Below, one piece after another: positions 25,631 to 58,137 of a stretch of 64,000 nt of DNA. Source of the stretch: Antedon mediterranea (taxonomy: Eukaryota > Animalia > Echinodermata); NCBI RefSeq assembly GCF_964355755.1, contig NC_092675.1, positions 25,640,912 through 25,704,911 of the forward strand, given 5' to 3'. The stretch's first letter is position 1. Each line of letters starts with the position of its first letter. A program made the translations under genes and the position numbers. The notes under the pieces were generated by a model. That model saw nothing but the letters and a program-made list of their open reading frames with translations. It was not told the DNA's origin and did no database searches.

Positions 25631-25667
25631 AAAATATGCACCTATAGAAGTTTTTAACCACATAGCA

Positions 25668-31387: not shown

Positions 31388-31452
31388 GGCTCTGTAGTCT
31401 AGTGGTATGATACTCGCCATGTAAGCGAGAGGTTCGAATCCCGCCAGAGACA
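31388..31452 (+). pseudogene. tRNA-derived sequence (SINE head or tRNA pseudogene), duplicate copy with a 7-bp deletion
   Basis: Paralogue of 42687-42758 lacking part of the T stem. Confidence 0.6.
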
Positions 31453-35478: not shown

Positions 35479-38400
35479 ATGTTTTCGTCAGTATATACCA
35501 TTGTCTGTTTTATGACTTTTCTGCATATGTCGCAATCCAGAATCATTTCATCATGCTATGATACGTTCGAATTAGGTAAGTTATCCTATATCTATTTTCT
35601 CAATCATCTAATTTTATGTACAAATTTAAATAAACAATCGGGAATCAAAATCCAAATTGCGTAACCAATTAACACAGTTTAGTAATAATACTTATATTGG
35701 ACGGTTAAGTTAGGTAACGTTATCCTTAAATGTATTGTATTAGGCTGCTAAATTCATTTATTTCCATCATCATCTAAAGTAAAACAAAAACAAAACCCAA
35801 AACAAAGGAGAAATGAAGTGTTGTAATAAGTATCAACTAATGGTTTAGAATGAATGGTTTAGTGACTTATAGGCCGACACATTGTATTACACGATTTTAG
35901 TCTCCTGTAAAGTATATACATTCTTCTTAAATATTAACAGCGCGATACATAATTTCCAAACTATAACTTTATTGTTCCGAAATTTAACAACGTAAATAGG
36001 TAATTTGGAATGGAAAGAGTGGCAGAATTTCAAAACTTGGATGACAAATGGATTGTCTGTCGTTGGGACGACAGTTAAAATACGCTGCATTTTCAAAATG
36101 TTTACCTTTTAACACAATGCTCATTATGAAAATGTACCATTGATGAATATATAATAACTTTTAAAACGTTGATCAAAATTGTTTAGTGTCAGAGTTCAAA
36201 GAAGCAAGACAAATTTCAAGATATAATGTAGATGCTTTTTCTTCACACGCGGCTGACGGTGGAATAGATGGAACGTACAAGAAACGTTCATGCACGCACA
36301 CACGTAAGTGATAAATTGCAAAATGTTTTAACGAATTATCTATTTTGTAGGATTTTATACATATTCATATAACATAACAATACGTGTAGTAACGTATTTT
36401 TAAGAGCATCGACGGCATGTAAACCATTTCAAAATAAATAGTTTCTAATTCAAACTTTCTTTTCGATCGATCGCAAAGACTTCAGCGCAACGCAGAATAT
36501 AGGAATTGACCAATGACATTCGACTGCTCGAATAATCCGTCAAATCCGTGATGGTATTTTTGTCGTATTTTATGTAATGTAGGCCTAATTGATATTTCTT
36601 TCATTAAAGTTTTAGAGGATAGTACGTGGTGGTATGTTGATCTCGGAACAGAAACAGTAATTTCAAAAATTGTTATATTTAACAGAGACGATTGTTGTGG
36701 TAAGAAGATTAAATATCATATTTGAGTGATTTTTTACTCGGTATTATTCTGAATTCTATTATATTACGTATACTCTAATTTCTATTGCATGCGTGTAAGG
36801 TACACTTTCGTTGAAGAGTTTGTATCTATCCAATTGGACTTCTTGTACCAGTGGTCTAATGGTGGATTCCGAGTTCAAATTTCTTCTCACTCTCTCTCTC
36901 TCCCTCTCTTTCCCCCATATTTCCTCACTTTAGCGTTTAAATTATAAAAACTTTAGTTTATTTATAGGCTTATAATATATATATATATATTATATATAAA
37001 TCAAAGAGCTGCATAGGCAGGATATAGAAAAAAATCAAGATCAAATAAGTTAAAACTGCCTCAATATAGATTTATTTTAACGACATGTTTCGGGCATAGC
37101 CCATCATCAGGTGAAAAGAATTGTAACAAAGGATAACATATATAAGTCACAAAATTACATAATAAAACAAATCAGCCAATCAAAGATGTTAACAAACAAA
37201 AGGCATAGTTATAAAGGCACACCTCCAAAAGCTATGGTGTACGAAGCAGGAATGGTTGCTTATAAAGCAGGAAATTTAAAACAAAGACAAAAGCTTCAAG
37301 TGTAAATAATTGTTAATATGTGAATGTCTCTGGCAAAATTAATGTTTAAAGGATCTAAATTGTACATTTATGCCGGTAGGGGCAAGAGTGCCAAGCTTTA
37401 CAATTATTCTTTCTTCTATAATTCTATGAGATGTCTCAGAACCATTACATACTTTAACACCAGAAATTGTAATATCCGAAAGGGAATGCTCATTATTACA
37501 AAAATGGGTGGCTACAGGTAATCCGGGAGTCTTTAGTTTAATAGACCTTAAATGTTCTACAAACCTATCACCTAACCTGCGTTTAGTTTCACCAATATAA
37601 AGCATATTACATTTAGTACACGAAATACAATAAACTAGATTTCTAGTGGTGCACGTAATACGATCTGTGATAACATAATTACCAGAAGGTCCTACTATTT
37701 GGTTTGAACATGAAACGTAATTACATGTCGAACATCTATTTCTATTACATTTGAATATTCCAGTTGATTCATTACCTTTGTTTTGTAATTTAGATTTAAC
37801 TAAAGTGTCTTTAATGCTTTGATCACGTCTGTAAGCTATCATGGGTGGTTCTTGAAAAATATCTTTTGTAGCGGATTTATCTTCAGTCAAAATTGAAAAG
37901 TTATCGCGGACAATGTTAATAACCTTCTTATTCATAGGATGATACGTGAGGACTAGAGGTATGCGGTCACAAGCATTTGTATTACGTGTAGGTTGCAATG
38001 TGTCCTCGTGCGTTAACTGGCAAACTTTTCTTAGAGATTTCACAGTAATGTCAGATGGATATTCGCGTGCATTGAAAAAATCGATCATCTCAGATGCTTT
38101 GATGTTAAAGTCATCATCATCGCTACATAAACGTCGAAGTTGCGAATACGGTATAGCATTCTTACAAGCTGGAGGATGCGAAGAGTTGTAATTTAGATAA
38201 GTGTGCGCGTCAGTATCTTTGTAGTGGACGGATGTAGAAAGACCAGGTTTATCAATAGATAAACTAATATCAAGGAAAGGCACACACTTGTCAGAAATTT
38301 CATGAGTAAACTTTATAGCAGGATGAAAATTGTTCACGAAGTTAATGAACTCATTAAGTTCATCTAAAGTTCCCGACATAACACCAACACAATCATCAAT

Positions 38401-38537
38401 ATACCGTTTGAATAAATCTGGTTTCTTTCCCTTAAAATCTCGTAACACATTCTGCTCAAAATACCCCATAAAGAGGCAAGCAAAGTTAGGTCCCATTTTT
38501 GTACCCATGCTTATCCCAGAAACTTGCCGAAAAAACT

Positions 38538-38574
<37 letters not shown>

Positions 38575-41500
38575 ATCATTAAATAAGATAATTTATTTCA
38601 GTTTTGTACTTTTTGCATATTTTCAAATGTATATCACTTGCTCGTTGTATTAACCTGTAGTTCTTTCTTTATTTAAGCGGATAGATTATCAGGAGTAGAG
38701 GTTCGTGTTGGCAATAGTCAAGTTTCGCCCTTTTTTAGTAATGCACAATGTAGATCGACTATTTCACGAATGAATGCACTTTTGCATTTTGTGTTTTTTT
38801 TTGCCTAACGCATGGTAATGTTACTGGTTATTAACAGTGAGTTGTTTGTTTTAAGCTGAGAGGTTAGCAGGAACAGAGGTTCGTGTTGGAAATAACAAGG
38901 CTCCACCGTTTTCGGGTAATGCACAATGTGCATTGACTATATCACGAATGGATGCAATCGCAAGAAACCCTATAGAGATGTCATGCAACCCACCTATTTC
39001 TGGGCGGTATGTCACTGTATATAAACAGATTAGAGGATATCTTACCTTATGTGAAGTAAAGGTTTACAAAGGTGTGTACATGGTAATAAAGCTTTCGCTA
39101 TTGTTGCTAAACATCATGTGTACACTTAGACAAATCACATGTTTTTCCACCAAGGTTTACAGAAATCTACGCTGATTCTAATTTCAAAATCACAATTTTT
39201 ACTGCGCATTTCCTAAATATGACCATATCAAAAAACGAAATTATCAAAATACTGTGTACATCAACAATAAATTAATCCTAAATCATTTTTTTTTAATAAA
39301 AGGGCTTTACTTCATTTTTTTTTCAAATCGAGATTGTTTGAGTATTTGATTTGACTAGTATAATTTATGGTATGACCAATATATAATGAATCAGCTTTAT
39401 ATTAGCGGGTACGATTCTCAGATGAAAAGTTTCTTTGATTAAATTTGTGTTTTTGCAAATATAAAACATGTGAAACTACGTGGAATATTTTATATTGATA
39501 TACTCCTAAAAACCAGAATACTACCTGTACATTGAAAAACAAAAACGCGTTTTGGTCAAAAGCGACATTTTGTAGATAAGCTCCTTTTCAACATCGGTCA
39601 GCATAGTTGGGCCTATTTTTATTTTCATTTATTATATTTCTTGTTATTGATCTTCATACAATAAAACCAATAGGTTCAAAAGAAGGAATGTAAACCTCTG
39701 TCATTATCTTTATAGACATTGGAAAACCTAAAGTTATGTGTCCAGATGATATAGTGGTAAATGTTGATAATAATCAGACTTTACATCAAGTTAATTGGAA
39801 TCCTCCTGACGTTTCTGATAATTTCCATACGGATCTTTCGGCAATCTGTTCACCGTCATCAGGTTCTTTATTTCCAGTCGGATTCACCAAAGTTACTTGT
39901 TTAGCTTCTGACGCAACTGGAAACCAAGGAAACTGTTCATTTGTTGTAAATATTGCAGGTCAGGTCAACTATTTATTATTTATAATAATGTATTGTCAAT
40001 ATAATCTGTATGTATTGGTATTTGTTTAACATATATATTTTTCTATATTTGCGATATTTTATATCGTATACATGTCAATTTAATCTATAGGTATGTGTAT
40101 TTGTTCAATATATATACTTCTATATATTTTTATATATTTGCAATATGTTATACCGTAAATACAAATTGTAAGTAGTAGTTGTACTAAGATGACATCGGGT
40201 ATGAAGCGTCTCACATACACACAGAGCCAACATTGCATCTTGGACTTGCACAGTGTATGGACTCTAACCTTACGGTTTCCATTAAATATACCATTTCATG
40301 CTATCATTCTAAATAACTAACTGTACTTTCAACCTATTGCATTCATCTTTTTTTCATTCCATCCATCTTATCTTGGTGAAAAGGGAGGATACTACATTTT
40401 CCTCCCCTGAGTTTATAGCCTCTCTACTCGAACACAAATAAGAACACAAATAAGATAGTTTAACAAGAAAATTTTAATCATGTATTTTACCGCCATTTTT
40501 CATTTCTACATTTAAATTAACATCGTATCTAAAATTTTAAATGAGAAAATGTATTGTTAATACTGAATTCTGGCATCTTATTATGTAAATATACCGGTAT
40601 TTTAACTACTCTAAACACTTACTTTTAATTGTCACAAATGTACTTATATGTATATAATATATTCATCAATGAGAATTTAAATAAACGTGAGAAGAACTCA
40701 CACAAGACAAAAAAAAAATAATGTATTGCGGAATTACAGAGGCCAACTAGCTAGGCATCCATATATGACGTTCGTTCTTATCGTGGTTTCTTTCAACATT
40801 TTCAATTCATTGAATACGCAATGTCATAAATCAAAACTAATTGATAGGCCTAATTTTTATGTGTGCTAAGACTTTCAGGAATGGAAATAAGAACAGATAG
40901 TCTTTAAACAGAAACTATTACATTTTAAATAGACACTATCCAGAAATTAAAAAAATATCGGACAACTTCCTTCTGAACAATATCCAGACACCTAACGCCT
41001 ATTAAAATAACCACCTAGCCTAAATTAAGCATTGAGCCAAGCTGTTTTTGTGGTAAGAGCAGCTAAGTTACTCAGTACGCCGGGGATCAATTTATTAATT
41101 ATAAGTCTTATTTGCACATCGTAATAATATATTATTATTGTATATTAGATAATAAACAACCAGACTTAATCTGTTCCAAACATAATAGTAAAAAAAAACA
41201 CATTGAAGAATAATAATGAAGAAAGAACTATGATCCAAACTGTAGTTGGGCATAAAGGTACAAGTTGTTTGTTTTTTCAGATGATAGAGAACCTGACCTC
41301 ATTTGTCCTGAGCATATCACGGTGGGCAACAATACTGACCAGTACGAAGATCCAGTAACCTGGAGTGACCCGACAGTGACTGACAATTTGCATAAAGACA
41401 TATCAGCAACATGTACACCTGAATTGGGATCAATCTTTGACGTTGGGTCAACTATTGTCACGTGTTCTGCAACGGATGATATTGGAAATGTTGGAAGTTG

Positions 41501-43475
41501 TTCATTCGTTGTCCATGTCATAGGTCAAACATTTATTTCTTGTAAGCATAATATTTATCAATACTTTAAAGAGCTTAATTTTTTAAATTAATACTGTTAT
41601 ATCTCTTTTCGCTATTCACCGTGTCCGATAACGGGCTTAGGATCAAAATACGTATTATATGTGTATTTGTATGTTCTTCAGATAATAAGGAACCAGATCT
41701 AGTGTGTCCTGAACCTATCATAGTTAACAACAGCACCGACCAGTACGAATATCCAGTCACCTGGAAGAACCCCATAGTAACAGACAATTTGCTTAACGAT
41801 ATATCAGCAACTTGCACACCTGCATCGGGATCCATCTTTGACGTTGGTTCAACTATTGTCACGTGTTCTGCGACAGATGGTACTGGAAATGTAGGAAGTT
41901 GTTCATTCGTTGTCCATGTCATGGATCAGACATATCTTTCTGGTAAGCACTGACTGGCATAACTTTTAACAGTACGTTAAACACTTATGTTGATGACTGA
42001 TATTAATTGTAAGCAATAGCAAGAGAAAAGTAGACATTCATAACAATTCAATTCTACTGATTACTAGGCCTATCATCATTTTTATTGCATCATGGTTTTC
42101 CTTATTATTGGCATTATGAAATACATTTAGTTAGATAAACCTTTTTTAAAATTAAATTAAATTCACATATACAAATTATTATATCCAACCCTTAATACTC
42201 AATATTTAAGTTGATTTTAAAACGTAGGTTACTTAATCAAACTGTGCAGAATATTTTAATGACTTAAAAGATTGAATATTCTTTTAAAAGCTGCGTGGCA
42301 GGGCAGTTGATTTATCATCAGCCTACCTGTACATGCGCAATATTCTCAACATGAAATGGAAGGAGATTATGCACAGCACAAACATACGAAATTAACAAAT
42401 CAATGGAAGGGTACTACACTTATTGAACAGTATATGACATATTTTAAAATGTTGTTATAGGTTATTCTGATGAGGGCCATGAATTTATTAGCGCTAGTGG
42501 TCAAGTAGCAATTCTCGTAGTCCTATGTATACTCGTTGCTAATTTGGTATTAGCTTTAATTGTGGTTGTCAGGTACAGTACTATTCTGTTATTTTCATTA
42601 TTTTCAATTTTGATTAAAGCTTTTGAATTGTTGAAAGTTCAGAGAGGATGTATCTGGTGGGTGAAAATCTATGATAATATCATAATGGCTCTGTAGTCTA
42701 GTGGTATGATACTCGCCCTGTAAGCGAGAGGTTGCAGGTTCGAATCCCGCCAGAGACATTTTTTCATACAACTAAAAAATAAAGAACTTTCGCCAATGCT
42801 CGACAAGATTATGAGATCATGTTCCGAATAATGAGCACTGTTTCTATAATTTACAGTATGATTTTTATATAACTTTCACAGTGATACGCAACACATTGAT
42901 TTATATATATATTTGTAAATATACCGTATGTATGTATGTTTATAATAATACAAAAAGGCGGATCATTTGGCTGATCTATTCTCTTTATTTTTTAAGGTTT
43001 AAAAAGGCGTCTACGAATCATTTGTAAAAAGTATAAAATGAAAAATCCTATACTCTCTCTCCCTTTCAGAACAATGGAATATTGAACAATGTTATTAGAT
43101 TGCATGCTATTATTCCTAAAACAATATAATTGCTATTAATAATTACTTACAGCAAGTATAATTCAATAAATTGTTATTTATTTTCATATGACTGTTTTAA
43201 CTAACTAATTAAATGATTTTAAACAAATTAGGCTAGTTTATTGAAATTTGTTTTGTTCGTTTTATGTGGGTTTTTATGCAAATTCTTCAATATTTAACAT
43301 TGTATAAATCTAACAAATAAATAAGAATTAAACAACAATTTGTTTTTAATACACATTTAAAACTGATGTGTTATTTAGGTACTATAAATGGAAATGGAAA
43401 TATAAGCAGGACACATTTACAGTCAGGAAGAAGAAAGAAGATGATGCAATATACTGTTCTGTATTGCAACCATAA
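35479..43475 (+). CDS. Gene C: FTP - 3xHYR - TM receptor with tyrosine-motif tail, about 491 aa
   Basis: Exons 35479-35575, 36187-36303, 36610-36699, 38856-39071, 39716-39958, 41281-41523, 41682-41942, 42461-42572 (TM VAILVVLCILVANLVLALIVVV) and 43379-43475 (RYYKWKWKYKQDTFTVRKKKEDDAIYCSVLQP*). The 1476 nt are in frame if the acceptor at 38856 is used. The H-x26-R-x-D-x4-R motif is intact. Confidence 0.8.
36990..38540 (-). mobile_element. 5'-truncated Penelope-like retroelement (RT plus GIY-YIG endonuclease) inserted in a (TA)n tract
   Basis: ORF 37339-38508: MGTKMGPNFA, RYIDD, FLD, CxxxRCxxC, VYCISCTKC..YIGETKRRLGDRFVEH. Flanked by TA repeats. Absent from the gene D paralogous intron at about 52410-52465. 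Confidence 0.93.
37075..37117 (-). ncRNA. Minimal type I hammerhead ribozyme in the Penelope terminal region
   Basis: Minus strand reads UUUUCAC-CUGAUGA-U-GGGC-UAU-GCCC-GAAAC-AU-GUC-GUUAAAA: conserved core, stem II, very short palindromic stem III, and stem I with one mismatch. Confidence 0.75.
42687..42758 (+). pseudogene. tRNA-like sequence (TGT at the anticodon position, Pro-like body); probably a SINE head or tRNA pseudogene in the TM-tail intron
   Basis: GGCTCTG/CAGAGAC acceptor stem, A box TAGTCTAGTGG, CTCGC-CCTGTAA-GCGAG anticodon arm and B box GGTTCGAATCC. It has C instead of U33 and stem mismatches. Confidence 0.65.
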
Positions 43476-46029
43476 CCTACTCATTTACTAAGAAAAAAAA
43501 CCCCCATGAGATGGTTAGAAATTACTGTTCACATTTAATTGCTGGGTTTTGATTCTTTTTAAATTTAAACCTAATTCACTAACTGAAAATTTATAATAAG
43601 TATTATAGTTTCAGATTGGCATATTTAGCAATTTTCATTAAAATTGATTTCAGAATTAAAGTTTTTCCTAATTAATATAATTATCCGGTAACATTATAAC
43701 GGTTGAATTAGTGAATCTATGTATTATTTGCTATTGTCTTGCTATGCTATTATTATTGCTTTATTTTAAAATCAAACAACTGATAAATCTGGAATGGCAC
43801 ATGCCATACATCTTTATTTATATAACAATTAGGTCTAATTTGTAAAATGTCATTACCAACATAATGTTATTAACTAAATGAATCTAGAATCATTGGACAA
43901 TGTTACTGTGCTTGTGTTGATATTGTATCTAATACTCCCAACAACAACAACACATGTTTTTTTATGCGTTTCCAGTGAGTATATAGTCAACTTAACATGT
44001 AAATACTGCTAAACTAATAAATAGTGTAATTTATTATACTGTTAAATACATTGTGAATACACAAACATAATCAAAGAATGGATGTCAACGACTTCCGATG
44101 ATGATTCTATTTAACATCAAAGTTGGAAAAATACTAATATTAAAAACCACTTCCTGTAAATCCGAAGACGGATTTGCAGCAAATTATTGTTATTATATTA
44201 ATATCTTTCAGATACATTGTGTAGTTTATATTCAAATAGCAGAAGCAAGATAGAAATAAAGTGTTTATAAGCAACTTAGACCTCTGTTCTGTACTCTTAC
44301 TTGTGGTACCTGTATTCTTAATAAGCTATCCGTCCTGGTTAGGCCCTATATATGTATTTGGTAATAAGATTCAAGAAGATTCAAGATTTAAGGAATTGTA
44401 TTGCTCCGTTTAAAATGGAAATTCATTTTGCTTGGGTGGCATAATTAAGAAAATAATAGACAATCAAACTACAAGAAAAATACATCAAATTGCATAAACA
44501 CTTAGGCCAATGTTAACATACTATTAAAACTATTAAAAATCATTAAATTTTAATATAAATCTTACAGTATAAAGTTATCGTCGAACACATATGAATGCTA
44601 TTTACAACAAATGACTTCCTAGTTCTATTTAGATTAGCTGTTGGTGGTCGTAGTCTAATCTATTAAACTTGTCATTAGGAAAACGAGCCCTATTTAACGT
44701 GAGCTTTTAGTACCCCGGCTAACCCGGGGTACTATAATTGCCTGTAATTGTTTTGACCCTGATCAGTCTTGTTGATGGGTAATTAACAGAACAGTGGCCA
44801 TCAATCATGCAGGAAAGTATCTGGGTACTAAAAGAAGCCAAGCCCACTTTGTTTGCCAACAGCCAATCACCGACAGCATCAGGTTTCAGTTACAGCATGT
44901 TTTTTAATGATTAGGTAATAGTTTGATTTCATGAAATAAATGAATATTTATAAAATAGCCTTTTCACGCCTTATAATTATTTAAGTAAGCCTTTATTTCC
45001 ATGTTTCCTTTTCGATTTTGTACATTTTAACAACATTGTATGGGGAGCTACAAAGTTCAACCTTAGATTGAGTAGTCAAGCGATCAACCAATTACAATTA
45101 AATAATTTTAATTTTATTAATTTACCAATGAAATACATAGCCTACTACAAATGGATTCTGAAATAAACTGGGATGGTGCGATGGGATTTGGTAGGGATGT
45201 CAAGAGGTACACCATCACATCAGACTCGGGCTGAGGTATAGGCAGGGAGTTGTTATTAATAACAACTCCCTGGTATAGGTAGGCCTACAATTTTTGAGAA
45301 TATGAGCGGGAAATTCAAATAAAATAATGTAGCCGTAGGGGGTGGTACCCATACGCTTCCCAAAAAGTGTTTGCGCTATATTAGTATATAGGACCAGATA
45401 TATGAATTAATTAATAATACTAAAAAATCTAAAAAATAAATCTTTTTATTTAAAAAAATGTAATTGAATGAATGTTAATAAACATAAACGAAACCTATAT
45501 AAATAACAATCTTTTTTATTGTGTAACAAGTTGATGTTATACGATATTATAATAGAGGGATTATGCCTCATTTTAGTTGTTTATGTTATTCTAAGAAAAC
45601 TGCACATAGGCCTACATACATTATGTTCACTTTAGCACTCTAGTATTTTAAAACATTGATGACTAGCAATTATACACGCCCGGGCGGGTTTCCTATGTAG
45701 TTTTAAAACTTCACAGTACATTCCCGATCATTTGATAACTCATTATGCAGATGCCCTAAAATGCACCCACCTCCCCAACACACACCCGCACTCGGGGATT
45801 TTTTAACTTATAATGTTAAACTTCCTGGTACAAATTCTATTGCAAACCCCGGCTCTATGACGGTTTTCAAATGCAGTTAAAACATACCCCAGTTCACATT
45901 ACTCATGTGGTCATTGATACTAACCCCAGCAAATCACTAAGCCTCCAACCCCTCTAACCTCTGCACACTGTGATTTTTTTAAATATAGTTTAAAACCTTC
46001 CCAGTACAATTGTGGTCATACAATCACGA

Positions 46030-46790
46030 AATATTGTGCTACCTACATTTGAGAAAGTGTGCAATCCATTAAAAAATTGTGCTCCTCTTTGAGAAATTGT
46101 GCTACCTTTTTGAGAAATAATTGTGCTAACCATTCGGGAAATTGTGCTACCTCTTTGAGAAATTGTTCTACCCATTCGGGAAATTGTGCTACCTCTTTGA
46201 GAAATTGTGCTAACCATTCGTGAAATTGTGCTACCTCTTTGAGAAATTGTGCTAACCATTCGAGAAATTGTGCTACCTCTTTGAGAAATTGTGCTAACCA
46301 TTCCGGAAATTGTGCTACCTCTTTGAGAAATTATGCAATCCATTCGGGAGATTTTGTGCTACCTCTTTGAGAAATTGTGCTAACCATTCGGGAAATTGTG
46401 CTACCTCTTTGAGAAATTGTGCTAACCATTGGGAAATTGTGCTACCTCTTTGAGAAATTGTGCTAACCATTCGGGAAATTGTGCTACCTCTTTGAGAAAT
46501 TGTGCTAACCATTCGGGAAATTGTGCTACCTCTTTGAGAAATTGTGCTAACCATTTGGGAAATTGTGCTACCTCTTTGAGACATTGTGCTAACCATTCGG
46601 GAAATTGTGCTACCTCTTTGAGAAATTGTGCTAACCATTTGGGAAATTGTGCTCCCTCTTTGAGAAATTGTGCTAACCATTCGGGAAATTGTGCTACCTC
46701 TTTGAGAAATTGTGCAATCCATTCCGAAAGTTGTGCTACTTCTTTGAGAAATTGTACGTACGGTATACCTATTTGAGAAATTGTGCTATC
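46030..46790. repeat. Minisatellite with a 42-bp unit made of two related 21-mers
   Basis: Alternating GAAATTGTGCTACCTCTTTGA and GAAATTGTGCTAACCATTCGG, degenerate at both ends. Confidence 0.95.
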
Positions 46791-46941
46791 TTTTTCACGT
46801 TTTTTCATCCCCTTCATAATCCATATTCCTATATCTTACCATGCACCAACTCATTCCAAATGTTAAAGGATACAAGATAATACTGTGACGGGATTTAATA
46901 TTATGTGCCAACAATACTTTATCGCATTATGCAGGTTCACA

Positions 46942-47676
46942 TTTTTAGTCGCGTGGACGCGACTCTATAGTTCACTATGTCGGTCGGTCGGTCTGTCTGT
47001 CTGTCGGTCCGGTATCACTATGCATGTTATCGCTTTCTGACCTTATCTTGATATCAGTTTAATCTAGCTAAGTCAATTTTTCACAGTATATTCCTTATGG
47101 CCAGGAATCGATGTGGTTATGTTTTCACGGTGCGCAATAAAAAATTACGCGGTCTACGCACGATTTAACGAAATCACGTTTGTAATCATATCTTCACAAC
47201 CATGAATCACAATTAAATAAAATTTGGTACTCATAAATTTCAGGGCATAAATCATTATATGGCAATACAATTACGTGCGTAGCGCATGTAACGCATGCGT
47301 ACGCGCGCTTAAAATTTTCAAAATTTATTTTCGATGAAATAAGAGTACGTTTCAGGCAATTTTAAGGGTTTACAAAATTGCCATGAGTGCGCAGATTTTT
47401 GCGCGCGCACTGTGCATTAAATGTTATTGCGCACTCTTTTTGGCCGATTTCTGTTTTCTTGACTTACTTTTCAACTAGAAATTACGTTATATGAGCACGT
47501 CAAAAGTGACAGGCTACGCACGTGTAAATTAAAAAAATATAAATGTTTTTAAACATTTCAACATTTTTACACATGTTCAGTAGTTCACTATGTCGGTCGG
47601 TCTGTCGGTCTGTCTGTCGGTCGGTCCGGTATCACTATGCATTGTAGCACGCGACTTAATGGCTGTTGGCCTTGTT
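46942..47676 (+). mobile_element. Helentron-associated (DINE-1/HINE-like) non-autonomous element
   Basis: Inserted in a T-run. Subterminal inverted repeat AGTCGCGTG / CACGCGACT, an adjacent 5' inverted copy, a duplicated core with (GTCG/GTCT)n microsatellite, and a short GC-rich 3' hairpin. Confidence 0.7.
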
Positions 47677-50600
47677 TTTTAACGGACAGGAATTTTTTAA
47701 GAATATATACTCTATAAAATTTAATTCAAATTAGGCCCATAATATATGTTTACATGGCAATTGTTAATTTTCAAATTTCAAACATGCACATACAGATTTT
47801 ATTCAGTGTATTAATTACAGTATCTGATTTTTTAGTTAATCGTTAAAATAATGATATCCTGGCCTATAACAAAAATGTTCCATCTGTAACATTAACAACC
47901 ATTTTTTAATATTTACTTAGACCTAATCTATTGATTACAATTCAGGAGTTACAAATTAAGAGTTAACATTTTTGGTATCATTACTTCACACAACTTAGAC
48001 AAACAAATGTCACATTAATGTGAAAAAAAAACTGAACTATTATGTATTGAGAAAAACATAAATATATATTTCCTCCATAAATGTGCATACAATTGGGGTA
48101 TACTCAAGAAAAGGGGTTTATAATTGAGACATAAAGTAACTATTATATAAAATATGATTATAAAATACAGTATTTAATTGTTTGCTTATAATTTGAAATA
48201 GTATTACTGTACTATTTATTATACTCCCTCTAATGTTAAATATATAGGCCTATTATAGGCCTATATATTTAACATTAGAGGGGTGGCAAATCCATAGAGA
48301 TCATTTTGAGATCTCAGCTGAAGAACATGAAATAGTTTATAAATATAGTTTTAATTTCAAAACAAAAGTTTTTGCTTTTCCAGCGATTTTAGTCTGGGTG
48401 CACAAAACACAAATTTTTAATTTAAACTCATCTCTACAGTTCATTCTTGGCTCCCTGCTGTTAGATTAGAACTGACCTTGCTAACCACAAGGCCACTTGC
48501 ATTCTTTAATTTTGTGTGCAAAAAATTTACCCATGGTATAATGGTGGTTTCTAAATACAATGAGTGACCAATTCCAAAATAGGCTGTGCATTGCAGCCAA
48601 TCAGAAGCAAGGAAGGCTGAGCCTGGAAGATGAACAAGGTGTTACGTGATTTATTAATTGCCTAAGACATTAATGACTGGCTTTAGGCAAAAATAAACAA
48701 GTAAGATGCCAGAGGCAAAAGCTCACGCTAAATAGGGCTCGTTCTCCTAATGTAACAGTTGGATGGGGTCTTTCTTAAGATACACTTCTCGTAAATTAGT
48801 GATTATATTAGTTAGATCTGCTTTAATGATACGTTGCGCAATTTTACGTGGTCTCTCTATATTTTTCTTATCTTTTTCATTATAATATGATACACCTCCA
48901 CGAGGACGTACTGCCAACAGAGATGCGGAGGTATCAATAGACGATGTGGCATAACAGTAAAAATAATTATGCAACGTTTTCAGGAAGTTAAGCTCATCAT
49001 TAAAAAGCCATGTTTCTTGCAAACAAATAGCATCAAGTCAAGAATCTCCTTCTGTCTAGACTTTAAGTTCTTACAGTTATACGAAACTACTCGGGCATCA
49101 CAAGTTTGGTGTACAGCCATGACTAGTCAGTATAGTTAAATCAGGAGTATATTTATTATCTTTCAAACCTATTCTAGGCTCATAATATTTACGAATGATG
49201 GCATTAGCATGCTAGATCGACGAATCAAGTATATTATCTCTCTATATTTAGCATCGCAGCTCAAAATGAAAGAAACATATTCGACACTTTAACAGCCAAA
49301 GCACTCACTTGCAGTGACTGCTCAACGGACCTATTTCCAAGGTATAAACAGAAAGGACCTGTTTTATTAGTTCCACGTTGCGACATTCTGCGGTTGTAGC
49401 GTGGTATAATTATAATGTCCAAACAACAGAGTCCAACTAGATAAAAGGCATCCATATTATATGTGACGTTCGTTCTTATCGTCGTTTCTTTCAACATAAA
49501 ATCCATTGAATACGCAATGTCATTAATAAAAAACTTTTGCAAGGCCTAATGTTTATGTGTGCTAAGATTTTCAGGAACGGAAATGATATAAAGAACAAAT
49601 AGTCTTTAAAAAGAAACTATTTCTTGATACACATTTTTATTAAATATCGGACAACTTTCTTCTGAACAATCTTCAGACATTTAACGCCTATTAAAATAAC
49701 CACCTAGCCAAAATTAAGCATTTAGTAAAAAACAGCATTGACCAGTACGAAGTTCCAGTAACCTGTAGTGACTCCACAGTACACCTGCACCGGGATGCAT
49801 TGCCACTGGGATGCATTCTTTTTTCCATATTAGGTTAAGGCAGAAACTATAGAGGGTGTGAATCAACACATAAATATTCATGATGTGACGGCAAACCCTG
49901 GAAATAGTTTTCAAACGGTAACCGAAAATGATCTCTCGTCGCGTTGCTAGGAAAGCTGCTGCAAAAACATTCACCAACCGTGTAGCCGCACCTACGTACG
50001 TATAGTATTAAACATTGTAATGTAGTGTAAATGAATTTGATTAAGAACTAATTGGCACTAAAATAACTGATAAAATACTTTTATTGCAACTTTTGGGTTG
50101 AATTATACAAAATGACATACATGTTTAATATTAGTCTGAACGTTGTACTTTCAGACATAATGAATTATTCCCTATAATATACATGGGAATATCTTTGGCA
50201 CTGCTAATGCAAAAACAAAATAATTAAAAATAAAAACATTATAATAATAATATATGTTGCTTATGTTTCTGAAATATTTATTTTTTTGACATCCAACAAT
50301 GTACATTATTATTATTAAATGAATTAATTAAAACTCACACATAATCTTAGAATCAATTGTGATTATACAGGTTTAATTATATCATAGCTAGGCCTACATA
50401 TTAACGGATTCTGCCAAAAAAAAGGAAAGACAATTAATTCATCAACGCGACAACATCATACCTCCATGTTCAGGCTATTTAGGCCTAATAGCTAGCGCAC
50501 GATGTTCGTACGCTACGGCTCTTTACCAGCTATATAGCAGGTCTTGTGTCAACAACATTGTATGACGTCATGAGCTCAGGCATGCATCATGAATATTGAT

Positions 50601-50909
50601 GATATACGTACGCCCTCTATAGCTTCTGCCTTAACCTAATAGGAAAACAATAATGCCACCGGGATACATCTTTGATGTTGGTTCAACTATTGTCACGTGT
50701 TCTGCAACCGCTGGAAATGTAGGAAGTTGTTCGTTTGTTGTCCATGTCATAGGTCAGAGAATTGATCCAGGAAGATTTTGTTAACAGATGTAAACGTTGT
50801 GTTATGTATAAACACGAGTTTACTGAATAATCCTATACATACCTGTACATACTTCGTAGGGCCAACATTAAATGAAAGTCACACTTTTCCAGTCGAACAT
50901 TCTTACAAA

Positions 50910-53900
50910 ATGTTTTCGTCAGTATATACCATTGTCTGTTTTATGACTTTTCTGCATATGTCGCAATCCAGAATCATTTCATCATGCTATGATACGTTCG
51001 AATTAGGTAAGTTATCCTATATCTATTTTCTCAATCATCTAATTTTATGTGCAAATTTAAATAAACAATCGGGAATCAAAATCCAAATTGCGTAACCAAT
51101 TAACACAGTTTAGTAATAATACTGATATTGGACGGTTAAGTTAGGTAACGTTATCCTTAAATGTATTGTATTAGGCTGCTAAATTCATTTATTTCCATAA
51201 TCATCTAAAGTAAACTAAAAACAAAACCCAAAACAAAGGAGAAATGGAGTGTTGTAATAAGTATCAACTAATGGTTTAGAATGAATGATTTAGTGACTTA
51301 TAGGCCGACACATTGTATTACACGATTTTAGTCTCCTGTAAAGTATATACATTCTTCTTAAATATTAACACCGCGATACTTGTCATAATTTCCAAACTAT
51401 AACTTTATTGTTCCGAAATTTAACAACGTAAATAGGTAATTTGGAATGGAAAGAGTGGCAGAATTTCAAAACTTGGATGACAAATGGATTGTCTGTCGTT
51501 GGGACGACAGTTAAAATACGCTGCTTTTTCAAAATGTTTACCTTTTAACACAATGCTCATTATGAAAATGTACCATTGATGAATATATAATAACTTTTAA
51601 AACGTTGATCAAAATTGTTTAGTGTCAGAGTTCAAAGAAGCAAGACAAATTTCAAGATATAATGTAGATGCTTTTTCTTCACACGCGGTTGACGGTGGAA
51701 TAGATGGAACGTACAAGAAACGTTCATGCACGCACACACGTAAGTGATAAATTGCAAAATGTTTTAACGAATTATCTATTTTGTAGGATTTTATACATAT
51801 TCATATAACATAACAATACGTGTAGTAACGTATTTTTAAGAGCATCGACGGCATGTAAACCATTTCAAAATAAATAGTTTCTAATTCAAACTTTCTTTTC
51901 GATCGATCGCAAAGACTTCAGCGCAACGCAGAATATAGGAATTGACCAATGACATTCGACTGCTCGAATAATCCGTCAAATCCGTGATGGTATTTTTGTC
52001 GTATTTTATGTAATGTAGGCCTAATTGATATTTCTTTCATTAAAGTTTTAGAGGATAGTCCGTGGTGGTATGTTGATCTCGGAACAGAAACAGTAATTTC
52101 AAAAATTGTTATATTTAACAGAGACGATTGTTGTGGTAAGAAGATTAAATATCATATTTGAGTGATTTTTCACTCGGTATTATTCTGAATTCTATTATAT
52201 TACGTATACTCTAATTTCTATTGCATGCGTGTAAGGTACACTTTCGTTGAAGAGTTTGTATCTATCCAATTGGACTTCTTGTACCAGTGGTCTAATGGTG
52301 GATTCCGAGTTCAAATTTCTTCTCACTCTCTCTCTCTCCCTCTCTTTCCCCCATATTTCCTCACTTTAGCGTTTAAATTATAAAAACTTCAGTTTATTTA
52401 TAGGCTTATAATATATATATATATTATATATAAACAAATCAGTGCAAAGAACATATATATATATAAAATATCATTAAATAAGATAATTTATTTCAGTTTT
52501 GTACTTTTTGCATATTTTCAAATGTATATCGCTTGCTCGTTGTATTAACCTGTAGTTCTTTCTTTATTTAAGCGGATAGATTATCAGGAGTAGAGGTTCG
52601 TGTTGGCAATAGTCAAGTTTCGCCCTTTTTTAGTAATGCACAATGTGCATTGACTATATCACGAATGGATGCAATCGCAAGAAACCCTATAGAGATGTCA
52701 TGCAACCCACCTATTTCTGGGCGGTATGTCACTGTATATAAACAGATTAGAGGATATCTTACCTTATGTGAAGTAAAGGTTTACAAAGGTGTGTACATGG
52801 TAATAAAGCTTTCGCTATTGTTGCTAAACATCATGTGTACACTTAGACAAATCACATGTTTTTCCACCAAGGTTTACAGAAATCTACGCTGATTCTAATT
52901 TCAAAATCACATTTTTTACTGCGCATTTCCTAAATATGACCATATCAATTGTAAAAAACGAAATTATCAAAATACTGTGTACATCAACAATAAATTAATC
53001 CTAAATCATTTTTTGATAAAAGGGCTTTACTTCATTTTTTTTTCAAATTGAGATTGTTTGAGTATTTGATTTGACTAGTATAATTTACGGTATGACCAAT
53101 ATATAATGAATCAGCTTTATATTAGCGGGTACGATTCTCAGATGAAAAGTTTCTTTGATTAAATTTGTGTTTTTGCAAATATAAAACGTGAAAATGTGAA
53201 ACTACGTGGAATATTCTATATTGATATACTCCTAAAAACCAGAATACTACCTGTACATTGAAAAACAAAAACGCGTTTTGGTCAAAAGCGACATTTTGTA
53301 GATAAGCTCCTTTTCAACATCGGTCAGCATAGTTGGGCCTATTTTTATTTTCATTTATTATATTTCTTGTTATTGATCTTCATACAATAAAACCAATAGG
53401 TTCAAAAGAAGGAATGCAAACCTCTGTCATTATCTTTATAGACATTGGAAAACCTAAAGTTATGTGTCCAGATGATATAGTGGTAAATGTTGATAATAAT
53501 CAGACTTTACATCAAGTTAATTGGAATCCTCCTGACGTTTCTGATAATTTCCATACGGATCTTTCGGCAATCTGTTCACCGTCATCAGGTTCTTCATTTC
53601 CAGTCGGATTCACCAAAGTTACTTGTTCAGCTTCTGACGCAACTGGAAACCAAGGAAACTGTTCATTTGTTGTAAATATTGCAGGTCAGGTCAACTATTT
53701 ATTATTTATAATAATGTATTGTCAATATAATCTGTATGTATTGGTATTTGTTTAACATATATATTTTTCTATATTTGCAATATTTTATATCGTATACATG
53801 TCAATTTAATCTATAGGTATGTGTATTTGTTCAATATATATACTTCTATATATTTTTATATATTTGCAATATGTTATACCGTAAATACAAATTGTAAGTA

Positions 53901-56900
53901 GTAGTTGTACTAAGATGACATCCGGTATGAAGCGTCTCACATACACACAGAGCCAAAATTGCATCTTGGACTTGCACAGTGTATGGACTCTCCCCTTACG
54001 GTTTCCATTAAATATACCATTTCATGCTATCATTCTAAATAACTAACTTTCAACCTATTGCATTCATCTTTTTTTCATTCCATCCATCTTATCTTGGTGA
54101 AAAGGAAGGATACTACATTTTCCTCCCCTGAGTTTATAGCCTCTCTACTCGAACACAAATAAGAACACAAATAAGATAGTTTAACAAGAAAATTTTAATC
54201 ATGTATTTTACCGCAATTTTCATTTCTACATTTTAATTAACATCGTATCTAAAATTTTAAATGAGAAAATGTATTGTTAATACAGAATTCTGGCATCTTA
54301 TTATGTAAATATACCGGTATTTTAACTACTCTAAACACTTACTTTTAATTGTCACAAATGTACTTATATGTATATAATATATTCATCAATGAGAATTTAA
54401 ATAAACGTGAGAAGAACTCACACAAGACAAAAAAAAAATTATGTATTGCGGAATTACAGAGGCCAACTAGCTAGGCATCCATATGACGTTCGTTCTTATC
54501 GTGGTTTCTTTCAACATTTTCAATTCATTGAATACGCAATGTCATAAATCAAAACTAATTGATAGGCCTAATTTTTATGTGTGCTAAGACTTTCAGGAAT
54601 AAGAACAGATAGTCTTTAAACAGAAACTATTACATTTTAAATAGACACTATCCAGAAATTAAAAAAATATCGGACAACTTCCTTCTGAACAATATCCAGA
54701 CACCTAACGCCTATTAAAATAACCACCTAGCCTAAATTAAGCATTGAGCCAAGCTGTTTTTGTGGAAAGAGCAGCTAAGTTACTCAGTACGCCGGGGATC
54801 AATTTATTAATTATAAGTCTTATTTGCACATCGTAATAATATATTATTATTGTATATTAGATAATAAACAACCAGACTTAATCTGTTCCAAAAATAATAG
54901 TAAAAAAACTCATTGAAGAATAATAATGAAGAAAGAACTATGATCCAAACTGTAGTTGGGCATAAAGGTACAAGTTGTTTGTTTTTTCAGATGATAGAGA
55001 ACCTGACCTCGTTTGTCCTGAGCATATCACGGTGGGCAACAATACTGACCAGTACGAAGATCCAGTAACCTGGAGTGACCCGACAGTGACTGACAATTTG
55101 CATAAAGACATATCAGCAACTTGTACACCTGAATTGGGATCAATCTTTGACGTTGGGTCAACTATTGTCACGTGTTCTGCAACAGATGATACTGGAAATG
55201 TTGGAAGTTGTTCATTCGTTGTCCATGTCATAGGTCAAACATTTATTTCTTGTAAGCATAATATTTATCAATACTTTAAAGAGCTTAATTTTTAAAATTA
55301 ATACTGTTATATCTCTTTTCGCTATTCACCGTGTCCGATAACGGGCTTAGGATCAAAATACGTATTATATGTGTATTTGTATGTTCTTCAGATAATAAGG
55401 AACCAGATCTAGTGTGTCCTGAACCTATCATAGTTAACAACAGCACCGACCAGTACGAAGATCCAGTCACCTGGAAGAACCCCATAGTAACAGACAATTT
55501 GCTTAACGATATATCAGCAACTTGCACACCTGCATCGGGATCCATCTTTGACGTTGGTTCAACTATTGTCACGTGTTCGGCAACCGATTATATTGGAAAT
55601 CTAGGAAGTTGTTCGTTTGTTGTCCATGTCATAGGTCAGACCTTCAATGGTAAGGAGTACTTTTATTTATATAGAGCTATGATATTATTTACAAACTTAC
55701 AGAATTGACCAGTATGACAAACAATATTTTAAATTTTTTTTAATCTACTACAATATTTTAATAAATTAAGCAGCCGAGGCTACCTGGGGTTAAGGAGTAA
55801 ATAATAATTATACAATTAGTATAAAAGTAAAGTAGTAAAAAAACTAAGGAAAATGGTGAATGAAAATTGAATAAATGAAAAAAAGAATCGCCATTTTGCT
55901 TTTCGTTATATCAAAATAGTTTACTAAAATCGTCTATATGAACATTTACTTTCAAGTAGGACTAGTTAGGCCAACAAAAATAAAATACGTAGTATTATAA
56001 TGCTTTAATTATTTTATCTGGATATTTAATAATTGAGATATAGTTATTGTCCAAAAAAGACGAACAATGCCACAAATAGCCAGAAGGCTGAAACTGTGAC
56101 ATTTTACAATACAAAAGTTAAAATCCGTTTAAATATTGTAATTATTATACTTTTATTATCATTTTTTTCTTTTTTTTATAGTTAAAAACAATGTACTTGA
56201 TAAACAGCCCGTGCTTATTTGTCCTGAAAACATTATTGTTAACAACAGTGGCATTGATTTAATGAGGACACCAGTAACTTGGACTAACCCGACAATGAGC
56301 TCTGATAATATTTTACCAACAATCTGTGCTCCGGCATCGGGATCGGGGTTTGACGTTGGTTTCACTACTGTTACATGCTCTGCTGTTACTGATGACGTAA
56401 TACGATGTCAGTTTGTTGTTTACGTTGAACAATATATTTCAGGTAAGACAATACATGTTCGACGTTCTGTTTTTTTTAACATGATGTACACTATAAGTGT
56501 ACACAGTCAAGCGGATCAGAAGGGTAATATATCCCGTATTACCTGTTTGATGTTTCTACGCGCGCGTTGTTTATGTAGTGCATTGTATTTTTATCGTTGA
56601 GCGCATGCGTAGTTGTAATTTCAAACCCGTATTCGACGGTTAAAAAAGCTAATCGTAATCGTCGAAAGCTCCCTATTGTTGTTGTGATAGCTAGAGCTCA
56701 AAATGGATGAAAATAAAGGTCGTCGATTTCAATGTGTACACTAAGAGATAAAATCGTTGCACCCTGCTTGTTCTTACAAAATACGGGAAATATCTAGCCT
56801 ACGTTCTGGTTCCATGGAATTTTCTTATATTTTGTTATACACTTGACAGGATCATCATTATCATCTATCTCGTTTTAAAATAGTTCACACACTTTCATTT

Positions 56901-58137
56901 GTTTGTTTTCATTTTACAACCCGGATTATACAATATATTTATATACATGATAAAAAAATAAAAAAAACAATAATAGCTCAGTACCACCAGTAACCCGTAT
57001 CACTGTAATTCCTTTTCGGTTAATCGTATCAAATTAGAATTTATATTATCATAATCTTATTTCTTAAAGCTACCCATTTTTCTATACTTGTTTCTTTATT
57101 GTTATATGTTTCACATTCAATGTTATATAACATATTGCTTTTAAATGAATTCCATAAAGATTTACCCACTGGCTTATTTAGTGCAGATAACATTTTTATT
57201 CTATAAATAGTAAATGCTGCAAAAGTGTAAATATAATCTATTAGCTTATCTCCCGTTCCTAGTATTAATTGTTTAAATGATATATTATTGTGATTTAAAC
57301 TTACAAAGATACTAAGCATTTTCCTCCAATATTTCTGAATAAATCTACAACTAAAAAACAAATGATTTTCATTTTCAATTTCCGTAATATCTGAAGATCT
57401 GAAGTGATAGTTTAAATTTGGCGCCAAGAATGTACAGAAAGTAATTTGTGGGTACTTTAAAATTATAGTTATTATTATTAGGTTATTCGTATGATGAACA
57501 TGTCTATACGACAAGTTTGAACAAAGCAGTGATCGTAACACTTTGTGTAATGGTTGTTATTATGGCATCTGCGTTGTTTTTGGTTGTAAGGTACTGTACC
57601 ATGTCATTTTTGGAAATTCCGATTTTCAATAAACCAGTAAATATAAGGTGTCTTATTTAAATTAACTTCAACATACATACTACCGCTTACCACTATTTAT
57701 GAACCACCGTGATTCTAAACCTATTTAATTTAACTTTCGCCGATGAGCTATGCTCGACGCGATTATGGGATCATGTTCCAAATATGAGCACTGTTTCAAT
57801 AACTTGACAGTATGATTTATATATAATTTACTCAGTGCTACGCAACACAATCCAAATATATACAAGTTTGTATTGGGATTGTTTTTTGTTACGGGTAACT
57901 CACTATGTAATGAAATTAGCGGACATACGGAAACCCTAATATAAAATTGATGAAAAGAAACAGGTGGTTCGAAAATGAGGTTGCAAATTAATATAATGTA
58001 CAGCAATAGAACGCTTTGTGTTTATATTTTTATTTTCATTTGTGCTTTTTAGATACTATAAATCGAAGTTGAATCATCACACAATTGGAGTCACCAAGTT
58101 AGAAGGTGATGCGATGAGCTGGAAGATTCTGGAATAA
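50910..58137 (+). CDS. Gene D: FTP - 4xHYR - TM receptor with C-type ectodomain and A-type tail, about 567 aa
   Basis: Exons 50910-51006, 51623-51739, 52046-52135, 52573-52788, 53442-53684, 54991-55233, 55392-55634, 56182-56442, 57482-57590 and 58053-58137. The 1704 nt are in frame, all introns are GT-AG, and the motif NRDDCCADR is intact. Confidence 0.88.
56940..57435 (-). mobile_element. Decayed 3' fragment of an L1/Tx1-type LINE
   Basis: ORF 57041-57541 includes ENENHLFFSCRFIQKYW, resembling the zf-RVT C-terminus of Tx1/L1 ORF2. Confidence 0.55.

Follow-up and report, generated by a model that had tools for sequence, protein, structure and literature searches.

A probable unequal-crossover hybrid in a crinoid tandem array of predicted membrane fucose-lectin-like genes

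Two neighbouring genes of Antedon mediterranea, here termed C and D, begin with nearly the same exons and end in different ones. The preliminary description of this locus read them as paired receptors, i.e. the same ligand-binding end placed on opposite transmembrane (TM) and tail modules, with D as the gene that had switched. Do C and D constitute a receptor pair, or does their likeness reflect the recent history of a gene array? This question was addressed by computational analysis of the window, i.e. the whole stretch of 64,000 nucleotides in which both genes lie.

On sequence grounds, the window contains a tandem array A-B-C-D-E of membrane fucose-lectin-like genes (Table 1), i.e. crinoid genes whose predicted products cross the membrane once and carry an F-type lectin domain together with HYR repeats. 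In each encoded protein, a signal peptide precedes the F-type lectin domain, after which come 3-4 HYR repeats, a TM segment and a short tail. The model of gene A comprises 9 exons (489 aa), which are open and GT-AG-bounded, and its HYR4 exon matches Pfam HYR. One intron of gene A contains a reverse-transcriptase ORF (10185-11513, minus strand). Gene B lacks HYR1-2 and is decayed, as exon 4 has a 1-nt insertion and the tail has a TAG stop (32103-32105); another reverse-transcriptase ORF (28797-29924) lies in its intron 3. Exons 2-4, HYR1 and HYR2 of gene E are open. The second young duplication matches the stretch from the tail of A through exon 4 of B (14320-30475), with a divergence of 0.6-3.5% in four blocks, and the segment found only in the C-D spacer holds a 42-bp minisatellite (46093-46755).

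Table 1. Coordinates of the features of the array within the window.
Feature	Position	Strand	Remarks
Gene A	6971..14444	+	signal, F-type lectin domain (4 exons), 3 HYR exons, TM, tail ...LEGDAMSWKILE
Gene B (decayed)	19607..32171	+	P0002 (155 aa, 'fucolectin-5-like') maps to B
Gene B exons 1-4	19607-19669, 20215-20334, 21659-21751, 30103-30300		
Gene B 3' part	HYR3 ~30618-30878, TM ~31161-31272, tail exon 32075-32171		
R1, crossover repeat in B	30481..30803	+	137 nt intron + 5' part of HYR3 exon
U1	30804-41544		
Gene C	35479..43475	+	open reading frame 497 aa
Gene C exons 1-4	35479-35575, 36187-36303, 36610-36699, 38856-39071		exon 3 starts at 36616 with alternative acceptor
Gene C exons 5-9	39716-39958, 41281-41541, 41682-41942, 42461-42572, 43379-43475		
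Repeat (retroelement-like) insertion, C intron 3	37054..38557	-	gap in C/D match; D without insertion
Pseudo-exon 4'	38677..38778	+	D-like copy: exon 4 acceptor + first 102 nt
B/E-like patch	38781..38960	+	acceptor in use + first part of C exon 4
R2, putative hybrid crossover repeat in C	41545..41868	+	best breakpoint 41863-41869
U2	41869-55254		
C-D spacer-only segment	44673..48750	.	4.1 kb; absent from rest of array layout
Gene D	50910..58137	+	protein 578 aa; equals public protein P0001
Gene D exons 1-5	50910-51006, 51623-51739, 52046-52135, 52573-52788, 53442-53684		
Gene D exons 6-10	54991-55251, 55392-55649, 56182-56442, 57482-57590, 58053-58137		
R3, crossover repeat in D	55255..55578	+	
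Old D-specific segment (HYR3 end, HYR4, TM)	55579..58012	+	72-82% like A in exons
Second young duplication	58013..63055	+	D tail exon, downstream DNA, E exons 1-4
Gene E, 5' part only	60284..64000	+	exon 1 ATG ~60284; runs off window

Pfam analysis of the D protein P0001 displays HYR (146.8 bits) and F5_F8_type_C_2 (65.8 bits, cut-off 27.8). P0001 matches the F-type lectins FBP32 of striped bass (3CQO, E 8.5e-39) and eel agglutinin (1K12, E 1.3e-21), the domain sequence and the His/Arg/Asp/Arg positions being conserved. The fucose-binding residues named for the F-type lectin are His52, Arg79, Asp81 and Arg86, and the corresponding motif is His followed by Arg-x-Asp-x4-Arg/Lys (PMC5712786). Residues H70, R97, D99 and R104 of D align with these four residues of 1K12, gap-free from the His to the second Arg; they are kept in C too (RDDCCAER), and gene A reads RVVCCAIR at the motif, the Asp being missing. 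The cation-binding motif is given as h2DGx (PMC5712786); the region reads AVDGG in D and AADGG in C, with Gly in the last position and not a small hydrophilic residue. For Pfam HYR (PF02494, cut-off 21.7 bits), HYR1-3 of C score 63.9, 50.2 and 45.4 bits, and HYR3 and HYR4 of D 43.7 and 24.4 bits; the Pfam scans covered single-exon references and the public proteins P0001 and P0011. The best matches in the ESM Atlas (feature score 0.76, TM-score 0.33) belonged to bacterial HYR/Big_4 clusters; they are no more than leads and were set aside on taxonomic grounds. The proteins are predicted to lie in the cell membrane, where the lectin head would bind fucosylated glycans and the HYR stalk would hold this head off the membrane.

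Here, unlike in 1K12 and 3CQO, fusion joins the F-type lectin domain with 3-4 HYR repeats as well as with a TM segment and a short tail. The legend of a review figure names a TM domain and CCP repeats as partner domains, HYR not being among those given there (PMC5712786). The same architecture, with a tail that starts RY(Y/R)K, is displayed by P0009, P0016, P0022 and P0023 of Antedon and by P0013 and P0014 of Anneissia japonica (P0022 and P0013 by Pfam scan, the other four by precomputed Pfam annotation). These relatives share 66-79% identity with HYR3 of C, and none of them has the Tyr-Cys tail variant of C. A literature search found no paper on an F-type lectin, HYR and transmembrane architecture; the family is absent among the matches listed for the Antedon mediterranea genome, and none among the matches listed combines F-type lectin, echinoderm and paired receptors. 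The text match for 'HYR' in PMC8878817 was rejected, as it is 'Hyriopsis' in a reference. The locus suggests that crinoids have a family of F-type lectins that are anchored in the membrane and carry HYR stalks, for which we found no describing paper.

The sequence common to the 5' parts of C and D extends over ~6.4 kb at ~99% substitution identity; it starts 2.1 kb ahead of the ATG and ends within the third HYR exon (47 mismatches in 3543 aligned bases between C 33352-36900 and D 48751-52340; 27 in 2890 between C 38960-41868 and D 52677-55578). By exon, the two genes differ at 0 of 97 nt in the signal exon, 1 of 117 and 1 of 90 in exons 2 and 3 of the lectin domain, 2 of 243 in HYR1 and 4 of 261 in HYR2; the third HYR exon displays one difference before C 41869 and dense differences from there up to its end. 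Exon 4 of the lectin domain is the exception, with differences at 18 of 216 nt and in 9 residues, owing to a B/E-like patch that C has behind a leftover, partial D-like exon 4'. Hence, the near-identity claimed in the preliminary description for all these exons stands for the signal, lectin exons 2-3, HYR1-2 and the third HYR exon up to C 41869, and does not stand for lectin exon 4. In residues 1-407, 391 are identical (96%) and 16 differ; 11 of the 16 fall in the F-type lectin domain, nine of them supplied by the patch. Before the break and outside the patch there are 9 exon differences in about 1,000 nt, seven of which alter the residue; introns and upstream DNA are about 1.2-1.7% different. 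Similarity in exons is not above that in introns and intergenic DNA; the likeness of C and D seems to reflect how old the duplication is, and not a homogenisation that has been kept up.

Self-comparison of the window displays the layout R1-U1-R2-U2-R3. B, C and D each have one of the three copies of the repeat R (~324 bp), which covers an intron end and the 5' part of the HYR3 exon. U occurs in two copies and comprises a B/C-type HYR3 end, a TM exon, a tail exon, a spacer and C/D-type exons 1-4, HYR1 and HYR2. Sequence of B is found again in C (30481-31164 as 41545-42230; 31147-33354 as 42440-44672) and sequence of C in D (33352-37053 as 48751-52486; 38829-41931 as 52543-55641), and therefore the B-C spacer is duplicated as the C-D spacer. 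It follows from this layout that C combines the 5' half of D with the 3' half of B, as a probable new hybrid. An informative-site breakpoint test places the switch at C 41863-41869, equal to D 55573-55579, within the third HYR exon: five sites to the left have C=D and two C=B, and to the right the ratio is 0 to 34 (Fisher 2.8e-5, uncorrected for the choice of breakpoint). The preliminary description had located a switch at about 55570-55680 and is borne out in this; its polarity is reversed, with C and not D as the recent chimera, a polarity derived from the layout of the R and U copies within one assembly.

C is probably a young hybrid from one unequal crossover between the third HYR exons of the neighbours B and D. 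Non-allelic homologous recombination would be the underlying mechanism, for which a hybrid is looked for between both parents, with a duplicated spacer and three copies of the repeat; all of these were found. As for age, the C-D half displays 0.9-1.3% divergence, and the C-B half 1.2% in the HYR3 block and 2.8% in the block from TM to spacer. Substitution divergence between the blocks of U1 and U2 (8/684, 62/2194, 47/3543 and 27/2890) is thus uneven, from 0.9% to 2.8%, and therefore leaves room for conversion at a later time or for more events than one. The two C=B sites among the seven informative sites left of the break are a counter-signal within R.

D is a conventional array member. Its model is identical, letter for letter, to the public 578-aa protein P0001, and open exons with GT-AG borders encode its fourth HYR, TM and tail (...LEGDAMSWKILE), in line with the preliminary description; the same holds for the TM and tail of C (...KEDDAIYCSVLQP). 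One may suppose instead that it was D that recombined recently, by the joining of a C-like 5' half to an A-like gene, or that ongoing conversion keeps the 5' halves of C and D alike; we regard this as very unlikely. The tail exon of D and its downstream DNA are ~98.8% identical to A (25 mismatches in 2038 bases), and therefore the 3' end of D has itself been reshuffled, but this applies only from 58013. The older segment before it is too unlike A for a recent joining (Table 1); right of the break, D and A have 28 mismatches in 140 aligned bases, and D has no young relative there within the window. The 3' end of D earlier described as A-type is such from the tail exon onward, and not in its HYR3 end, HYR4 and TM exon. 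Moreover, three R and two U copies make the middle gene the new combination. Conversion gains some support from the patch in C, which shows that non-reciprocal exchange occurs in the array; however, the high identity includes spacer and introns, and its ends coincide exactly with those of the duplication unit.

The proposed hybrid C has features of its own. The ~1.5 kb insertion in intron 3 contains a 417-aa ORF (37339-38592), for which a Pfam scan gave no match at E <= 0.001, and displays very high contig depth in DNA runs; we take it to be perhaps Penelope-like, only on the basis of YIDD and YIGET motifs in the translation. Pseudo-exon 4', if spliced in, reaches a stop codon. The patch region of C is 97.7% identical to E 62583-62883 in the self-comparison, and the patch in exon 4 is a copy from paralogue B or E that was introduced later. 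The public protein P0011 (244 aa) corresponds, from residue 3 onward, to the last four exons of C.

Tandem copies at 99% identity are difficult to assemble, and C or D could be an assembly chimera of such copies, which we consider extremely unlikely in view of the sequencing runs. Run X5 was treated as RNA; its identity as such, initially only guessed, was accepted because one contig carries three GT..AG joints missing from the DNA runs. This 1422-nt contig joins D 55649 to 56182, 56442 to 57482 and 57590 to 58053, all matching the model, and the DNA runs X1 and X3 cover the introns at these joints instead. An RNA contig from another study thereby has the D-type end of HYR3 continuous with HYR4, TM and tail. 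A further D-type X5 contig covers the 5'UTR and exon 1 with 1 difference in 309 nt. D is transcribed and spliced (3' splicing, 5' exon). The contig over exon 1 extends 31 nt beyond the donor, and 143 nt bounded by non-canonical ends are missing from it; our reading is that the RNA was unspliced and that two direct repeats flank an indel. A C-specific RNA contig was not seen, with no X5 cover on HYR3, TM and tail of C at 98% likeness; this was not used as evidence.

DNA contigs agree with C without any difference at 41849-42209 and at 42180-42511, and with D at 55612-56073 apart from 2 differences, and the private insertion, exon 4' and patch of C likewise argue against a chimera. On the other hand, X1 and X3 contigs display only D letters at the C/D-differing sites in 35620-36735 and only G at 41750, so that the C-specific letters of exons 1-3 are missing, which may mean nothing as contigs drop minority variants. 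The sampled individual may also lack the form of the C 5' half that the window displays. Among the contigs listed, none bridges the patch junction (38778/38781) or the junctions of the repeat insertion in C. Run X6 (organism B) matched repeats only.

Paired receptors of vertebrates, such as Siglec-5/Siglec-14, KIR and PIR, combine one partner with an ITIM tail and another with a charged TM residue or an ITAM. The ITIM consensus is (I/V/L/S)xYxx(I/V/L). The TM segments of D (AVIVTLCVMVVIMASALFLVV) and C (VAILVVLCILVANLVLALIVVV) are devoid of K, R, D and E. The tails, of 28 and 32 residues, are short, and 6 further family members have tails collinear with them; by sequence they are homologous, collinear variants of one family tail, and the opposite modules of the preliminary description are not upheld. 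Neither tail contains a canonical ITIM (AIYCSV of C has Ala at -2, and D is without a distal Tyr) or an ITAM, a YxxL/I pair being absent. In the C tail, an acidic run is followed by a single distal Tyr (EDDAIYCSV), which is missing from D and the 6 other tails, and Tyr-Cys stands at the family's Ser/Thr-Trp position; this could alter sorting or signalling. Comparison of the C TM and tail with proteins of 428-2000 aa gave 41 candidates, none at E <= 0.01, which is weak evidence. Pfam hits on single tail or TM exons (DUF7309 19.9 bits, cut-off 27; Pertussis_S2S3 13.1; LsmAD 15.5) were rejected as sub-threshold noise.

May C and D still work as paired receptors, with one glycan ligand and a Tyr-motif tail (C) versus a Ser/Thr-Trp tail (D)? 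The gene-level configuration was described correctly: one 5' module stands on two different 3' modules in adjacent genes, which are linked and closely similar in their outer parts. The fucose-binding triad is intact in both, the 497-codon frame of C is fully open, so that a predicted full-length C could work, and the distal Tyr is peculiar to C. Nevertheless, we deem a working pair highly improbable. The signalling motifs are lacking and the tails are homologous. Most residue differences adjoin the binding motif in the lectin domain, those in exons outside the patch give no purifying signal, and the similarity of the outer parts is not kept above background by conversion, being equal in introns, spacer and exons. 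Signal, lectin domain and HYR1 are missing from the public model of C, no match to the C-type TM and tail was found among the searched proteins of 428-2000 aa, and the sole other copy of the C tail, in B, has a stop codon. An opposing receptor pair is thus unsupported, and C and D probably represent an ordinary young gene duplication. As it stands, C is an ordinary young duplicate with a putative function.

We give little chance to a crinoid lectin paired receptor built by a single crossover, with one fucose-binding head and two tails; if true, Siglec-5/14 would have a counterpart among invertebrates, observed at no more than about 1% divergence from its origin. Regardless, the locus is a clean and datable case of a tandem array exchanging TM and tail exons between receptors with a common outer part, and such exon swapping is the same raw material as for vertebrate paired receptors.

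Hybrid genes from unequal crossover in tandem arrays are known from haemoglobin anti-Lepore, red/green opsin hybrids and KIR hybrids. As in these, C lies between its presumed parents, joins the 5' half of one to the 3' half of the other, has a duplicated spacer towards D and a break within a common homologous stretch. Unlike in these, the parents are crinoid membrane lectin genes, and the 3' parent B has decayed since. With Siglec-5/14, KIR and PIR, the locus shares adjacent genes, similar outer parts, different TM and tail exons and recombination within a cluster. It differs from them in that C and D have homologous tails without ITIM, ITAM or charged TM residue, and in that their similarity extends beyond the ligand-binding exons, with most differences in the lectin head.

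The window is AT-rich (26–40% G+C in 2-kb windows) and carries five related genes, A to E, arranged as a tandem array on its + strand. Exon models with GT–AG borders give open frames of 489 aa for A, 497 aa for C (using the exon 3 acceptor of the public model) and 578 aa for D. The D model is identical in every letter to the public protein P0001, and querying with D exon 4 recovered an entry of 578 aa, "uncharacterized protein [Antedon mediterranea]", with 100% identity. Open reading frames matching Pfam RVT_1 lie inside introns of A (10185–11513, − strand, E = 1.3e-32) and B (28797–29924, + strand, E = 3.5e-24). Upstream of the array (1693–2694, + strand), an open frame encodes 333 aa with many Gln, Thr, Pro and Val residues; it has no Pfam match and could belong, as one exon, to an unrelated neighbour gene. 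Self-comparison also shows a unit of about 180 bp repeated in tandem at 3994–4536, its copies being 98–99% identical.

Genes of the array, and repeats and units of the proposed duplication
Feature	Position	Strand	Description
Gene A	6971–14444	+	array member
Gene B	19607–32171	+	array member
Gene C	35479–43475	+	array member
Gene D	50910–58137	+	array member
Gene E	from about 60284, extends past window end	+	array member
R, copy 1	30481–30803		about 324 bp: 137 nt of intron and 5' part of HYR3 exon
R, copy 2	41545–41868		as copy 1
R, copy 3	55255–55578		as copy 1
U1	30804–41544		between R copies
U2	41869–55254		between R copies

Against Pfam, P0001 scores 146.8 bits for HYR (three stretches), 65.8 bits for F5_F8_type_C_2 and 35.4 bits for F5_F8_type_C; the fourth HYR repeat of D alone reaches 24.4 bits (cut-off 21.7). 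Comparison of the N-terminal domain of D with solved structures gave F-type lectin matches to FBP32 (3CQO, E = 8.5e-39) and to eel agglutinin (1K12, E = 1.3e-21). The motif-bearing stretch of D aligns to eel agglutinin without gaps, so that H70, R97, D99 and R104 fall on His52, Arg79, Asp81 and Arg86, the residues that a review names as fucose-binding (PMC5712786). C retains the residues of D at these positions. Together, the Pfam, structure-match and motif results point to a predicted architecture of signal peptide (suggested by the hydrophobic N-terminus), F-type lectin domain, 3–4 HYR repeats, one transmembrane (TM) segment and a tail of 28–32 residues. This architecture recurs in other proteins encoded on that Antedon chromosome and in Anneissia japonica; our own Pfam scan confirmed it for P0022 (Antedon) and P0013 (Anneissia japonica). 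In the portion of the literature reached by our searches, no paper describes a membrane F-type lectin with HYR repeats. Relics of a HYR exon are seen at 35231–35326 and 50662–50757, about 150–250 bp 5' of the start codons of C and D, with 88% identity to residues 304–337 of P0001 (34 residues).

The likeness of C and D extends from 2.1 kb 5' of the ATG into the third HYR exon, with 47/3543 and 27/2890 mismatched bases over the shared 5' part. The first six exons differ at 0/97, 1/117, 1/90, 18/216, 2/243 and 4/261 nucleotides. The near-identity of the ectodomains claimed in the preliminary description thus holds for most exons (0–4 nucleotide differences), but not for lectin exon 4, where nine residues differ at positions 103–122, directly after the binding motif; residues 1–407 hold 16 differences, 11 of them within the lectin domain. 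In C, about 180 bp at this place (38781–38960) are B/E-like and are preceded by a leftover D-like acceptor and a partial exon 4' (38677–38778) which, if used, reads into a stop codon. Competition from the acceptor at 38677 could plausibly lead to mis-splicing of C. Intron 3 of C also holds a highly repeated 1.5-kb insertion that D lacks, with very high contig depth in all DNA runs. Its − strand contains a 417-aa ORF (37339–38592) without a Pfam match at E ≤ 0.001; YIDD and YIGET are visible in the translation, motifs which we take to suggest a Penelope-like retroelement.

Within the HYR3 exon, C and D differ at one site before C 41869 and in a dense run afterwards. When B, C and D are aligned together, informative sites uniting C with D versus C with B number 5:2 left of 41863–41869 and 0:34 right of it (Fisher p = 2.8e-5, with no correction for breakpoint choice), which agrees with the switch previously placed in D at 55570–55680. 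The 3' part of D had been called A-type; this applies to the tail exon and downstream DNA, which are young copies of A (25/2038 mismatches), but up to 58012 identity is only 72–82%. On the right side of the break, 28 of 140 aligned bases distinguish D from A, and D has no young relative within the window; the HYR3–HYR4 junction of D is old.

We propose that the C–D and B–C likenesses are parts of a single tandem duplication. Each unit (U) between copies of the crossover repeat (R) contains, in order, a B/C-type HYR3 end, TM exon, tail exon, spacer, C/D-type exons 1–4, HYR1 and HYR2. Aligned blocks of U1 and U2 diverge by 0.9–2.8% (8/684, 62/2194, 47/3543 and 27/2890). The units are distinguished by the 1.5-kb insertion, the exon 4 patch, an intron piece of about 0.2 kb (42231–42439, between the HYR3 and TM exons of C, absent in B) and a 4.1-kb segment unique to the C–D spacer, which includes a minisatellite (46033–46755; 42-bp unit of two 21-bp halves, 15.7 copies, 93% matches). 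R-U-R-U-R is the expected product of unequal crossover between the two R copies of an ancestral R-U-R. Because the middle gene of this layout is the new combination, C is most likely the recent chimera, with a D-type 5' half and a B-type 3' half. A second young duplication (0.6–3.5%) leads from the A tail exon, downstream DNA and B exons 1–4 to the D tail exon, downstream DNA and E exons 1–4; hence, the array has been reshuffled repeatedly. B decayed afterwards: exon 4 has a 1-nt insertion, HYR1–2 are missing, intron 3 has taken up large repeats, and a TAG stop interrupts the tail exon ahead of the tyrosine.

Contigs from the DNA runs X1 and X3 match local junctions of C (41849–42209 and 42180–42511, 0 differences) and D (55612–56073, 2 differences); this supports local junctions, not long-range order. 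At ten C/D-differing sites (35620–36735) they carry solely the letters of D in one unbroken 1548-nt contig, and at 41750 only G, where B and C in the window both have T. Contigs drop minority variants, so the absence of C letters may be an artefact of how they are built. Alternatively, the individual may carry a different version of the array; its sequence also departs from the window at two positions of D, 55644 and 55654. Position 55644 is G in X1/X3 and T in the window and the RNA contig, likely an allele; G would turn Phe into Cys in the HYR3–HYR4 linker.

A 1422-nt contig of X5, a run from a different study treated as RNA, displays GT..AG joints at 55649/56182, 56442/57482 and 57590/58053, joining the HYR3 end of D to HYR4, TM, tail and 3'UTR. 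The same joints are absent from X1 and X3, whose contigs cover the introns; therefore, the 3' half of D is transcribed and spliced as modelled. A second X5 contig, differing at 1 of 309 nt, covers the D 5'UTR and exon 1. The donor region of this exon recurs about 140 bp downstream (51003–51181), and here one X5 RNA contig omits 143 nt with non-canonical ends; the probable cause is unspliced RNA carrying an indel polymorphism.

No C-specific RNA contig was seen among the X5 contigs. The public C model (P0011, 244 aa) starts with "MY", continues with HYR2, HYR3, TM and tail, and lacks signal peptide, lectin domain and HYR1. Exon 4 of C was not found in proteins of 126–2000 aa, the 3 hits among 13 candidates being D, B and a frog protein. 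The open frame of C is no argument for selection, because frames stay open by default at about 1% divergence; nor is the proportion of residue-altering exon differences outside the patch (7 of 9).

The TM and tail sequences quoted earlier for C and D are present, but their reading as opposite modules is not borne out. When aligned, the tails of C, D, A and six other family members are all collinear: RY(Y/R)K.K is followed by T/F/L positions, a run of acidic residues and, close to the end, (S/T)W. D and A have the same tail at the protein level, and C has Y-C at the site that S/T-W or S/T-L/F occupies in the other members. With the TM and tail of C as query, none of 41 candidates of 428–2000 aa matched at E ≤ 0.01, which is weak evidence. 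Among consensus motifs, AIYCSV of C deviates from that of the ITIM at position −2 and is loosely compatible with a YxxV sorting or an acidic-Tyr (hemITAM-like) motif, which gives no basis for assigning an output to the tail. Neither TM segment has a charged residue, and there is no ITAM. The literature covered by our searches yielded no paper on echinoderm paired receptors. The comparison with paired receptors is an analogy that fails in the defining features tested (ITAM, charged TM residue, ITIM consensus); the underlying structural observation was largely right. In the best-supported reading, C is a young hybrid that arose by unequal crossover, and the array of crinoid membrane F-type lectin genes around it is reshuffling fast.
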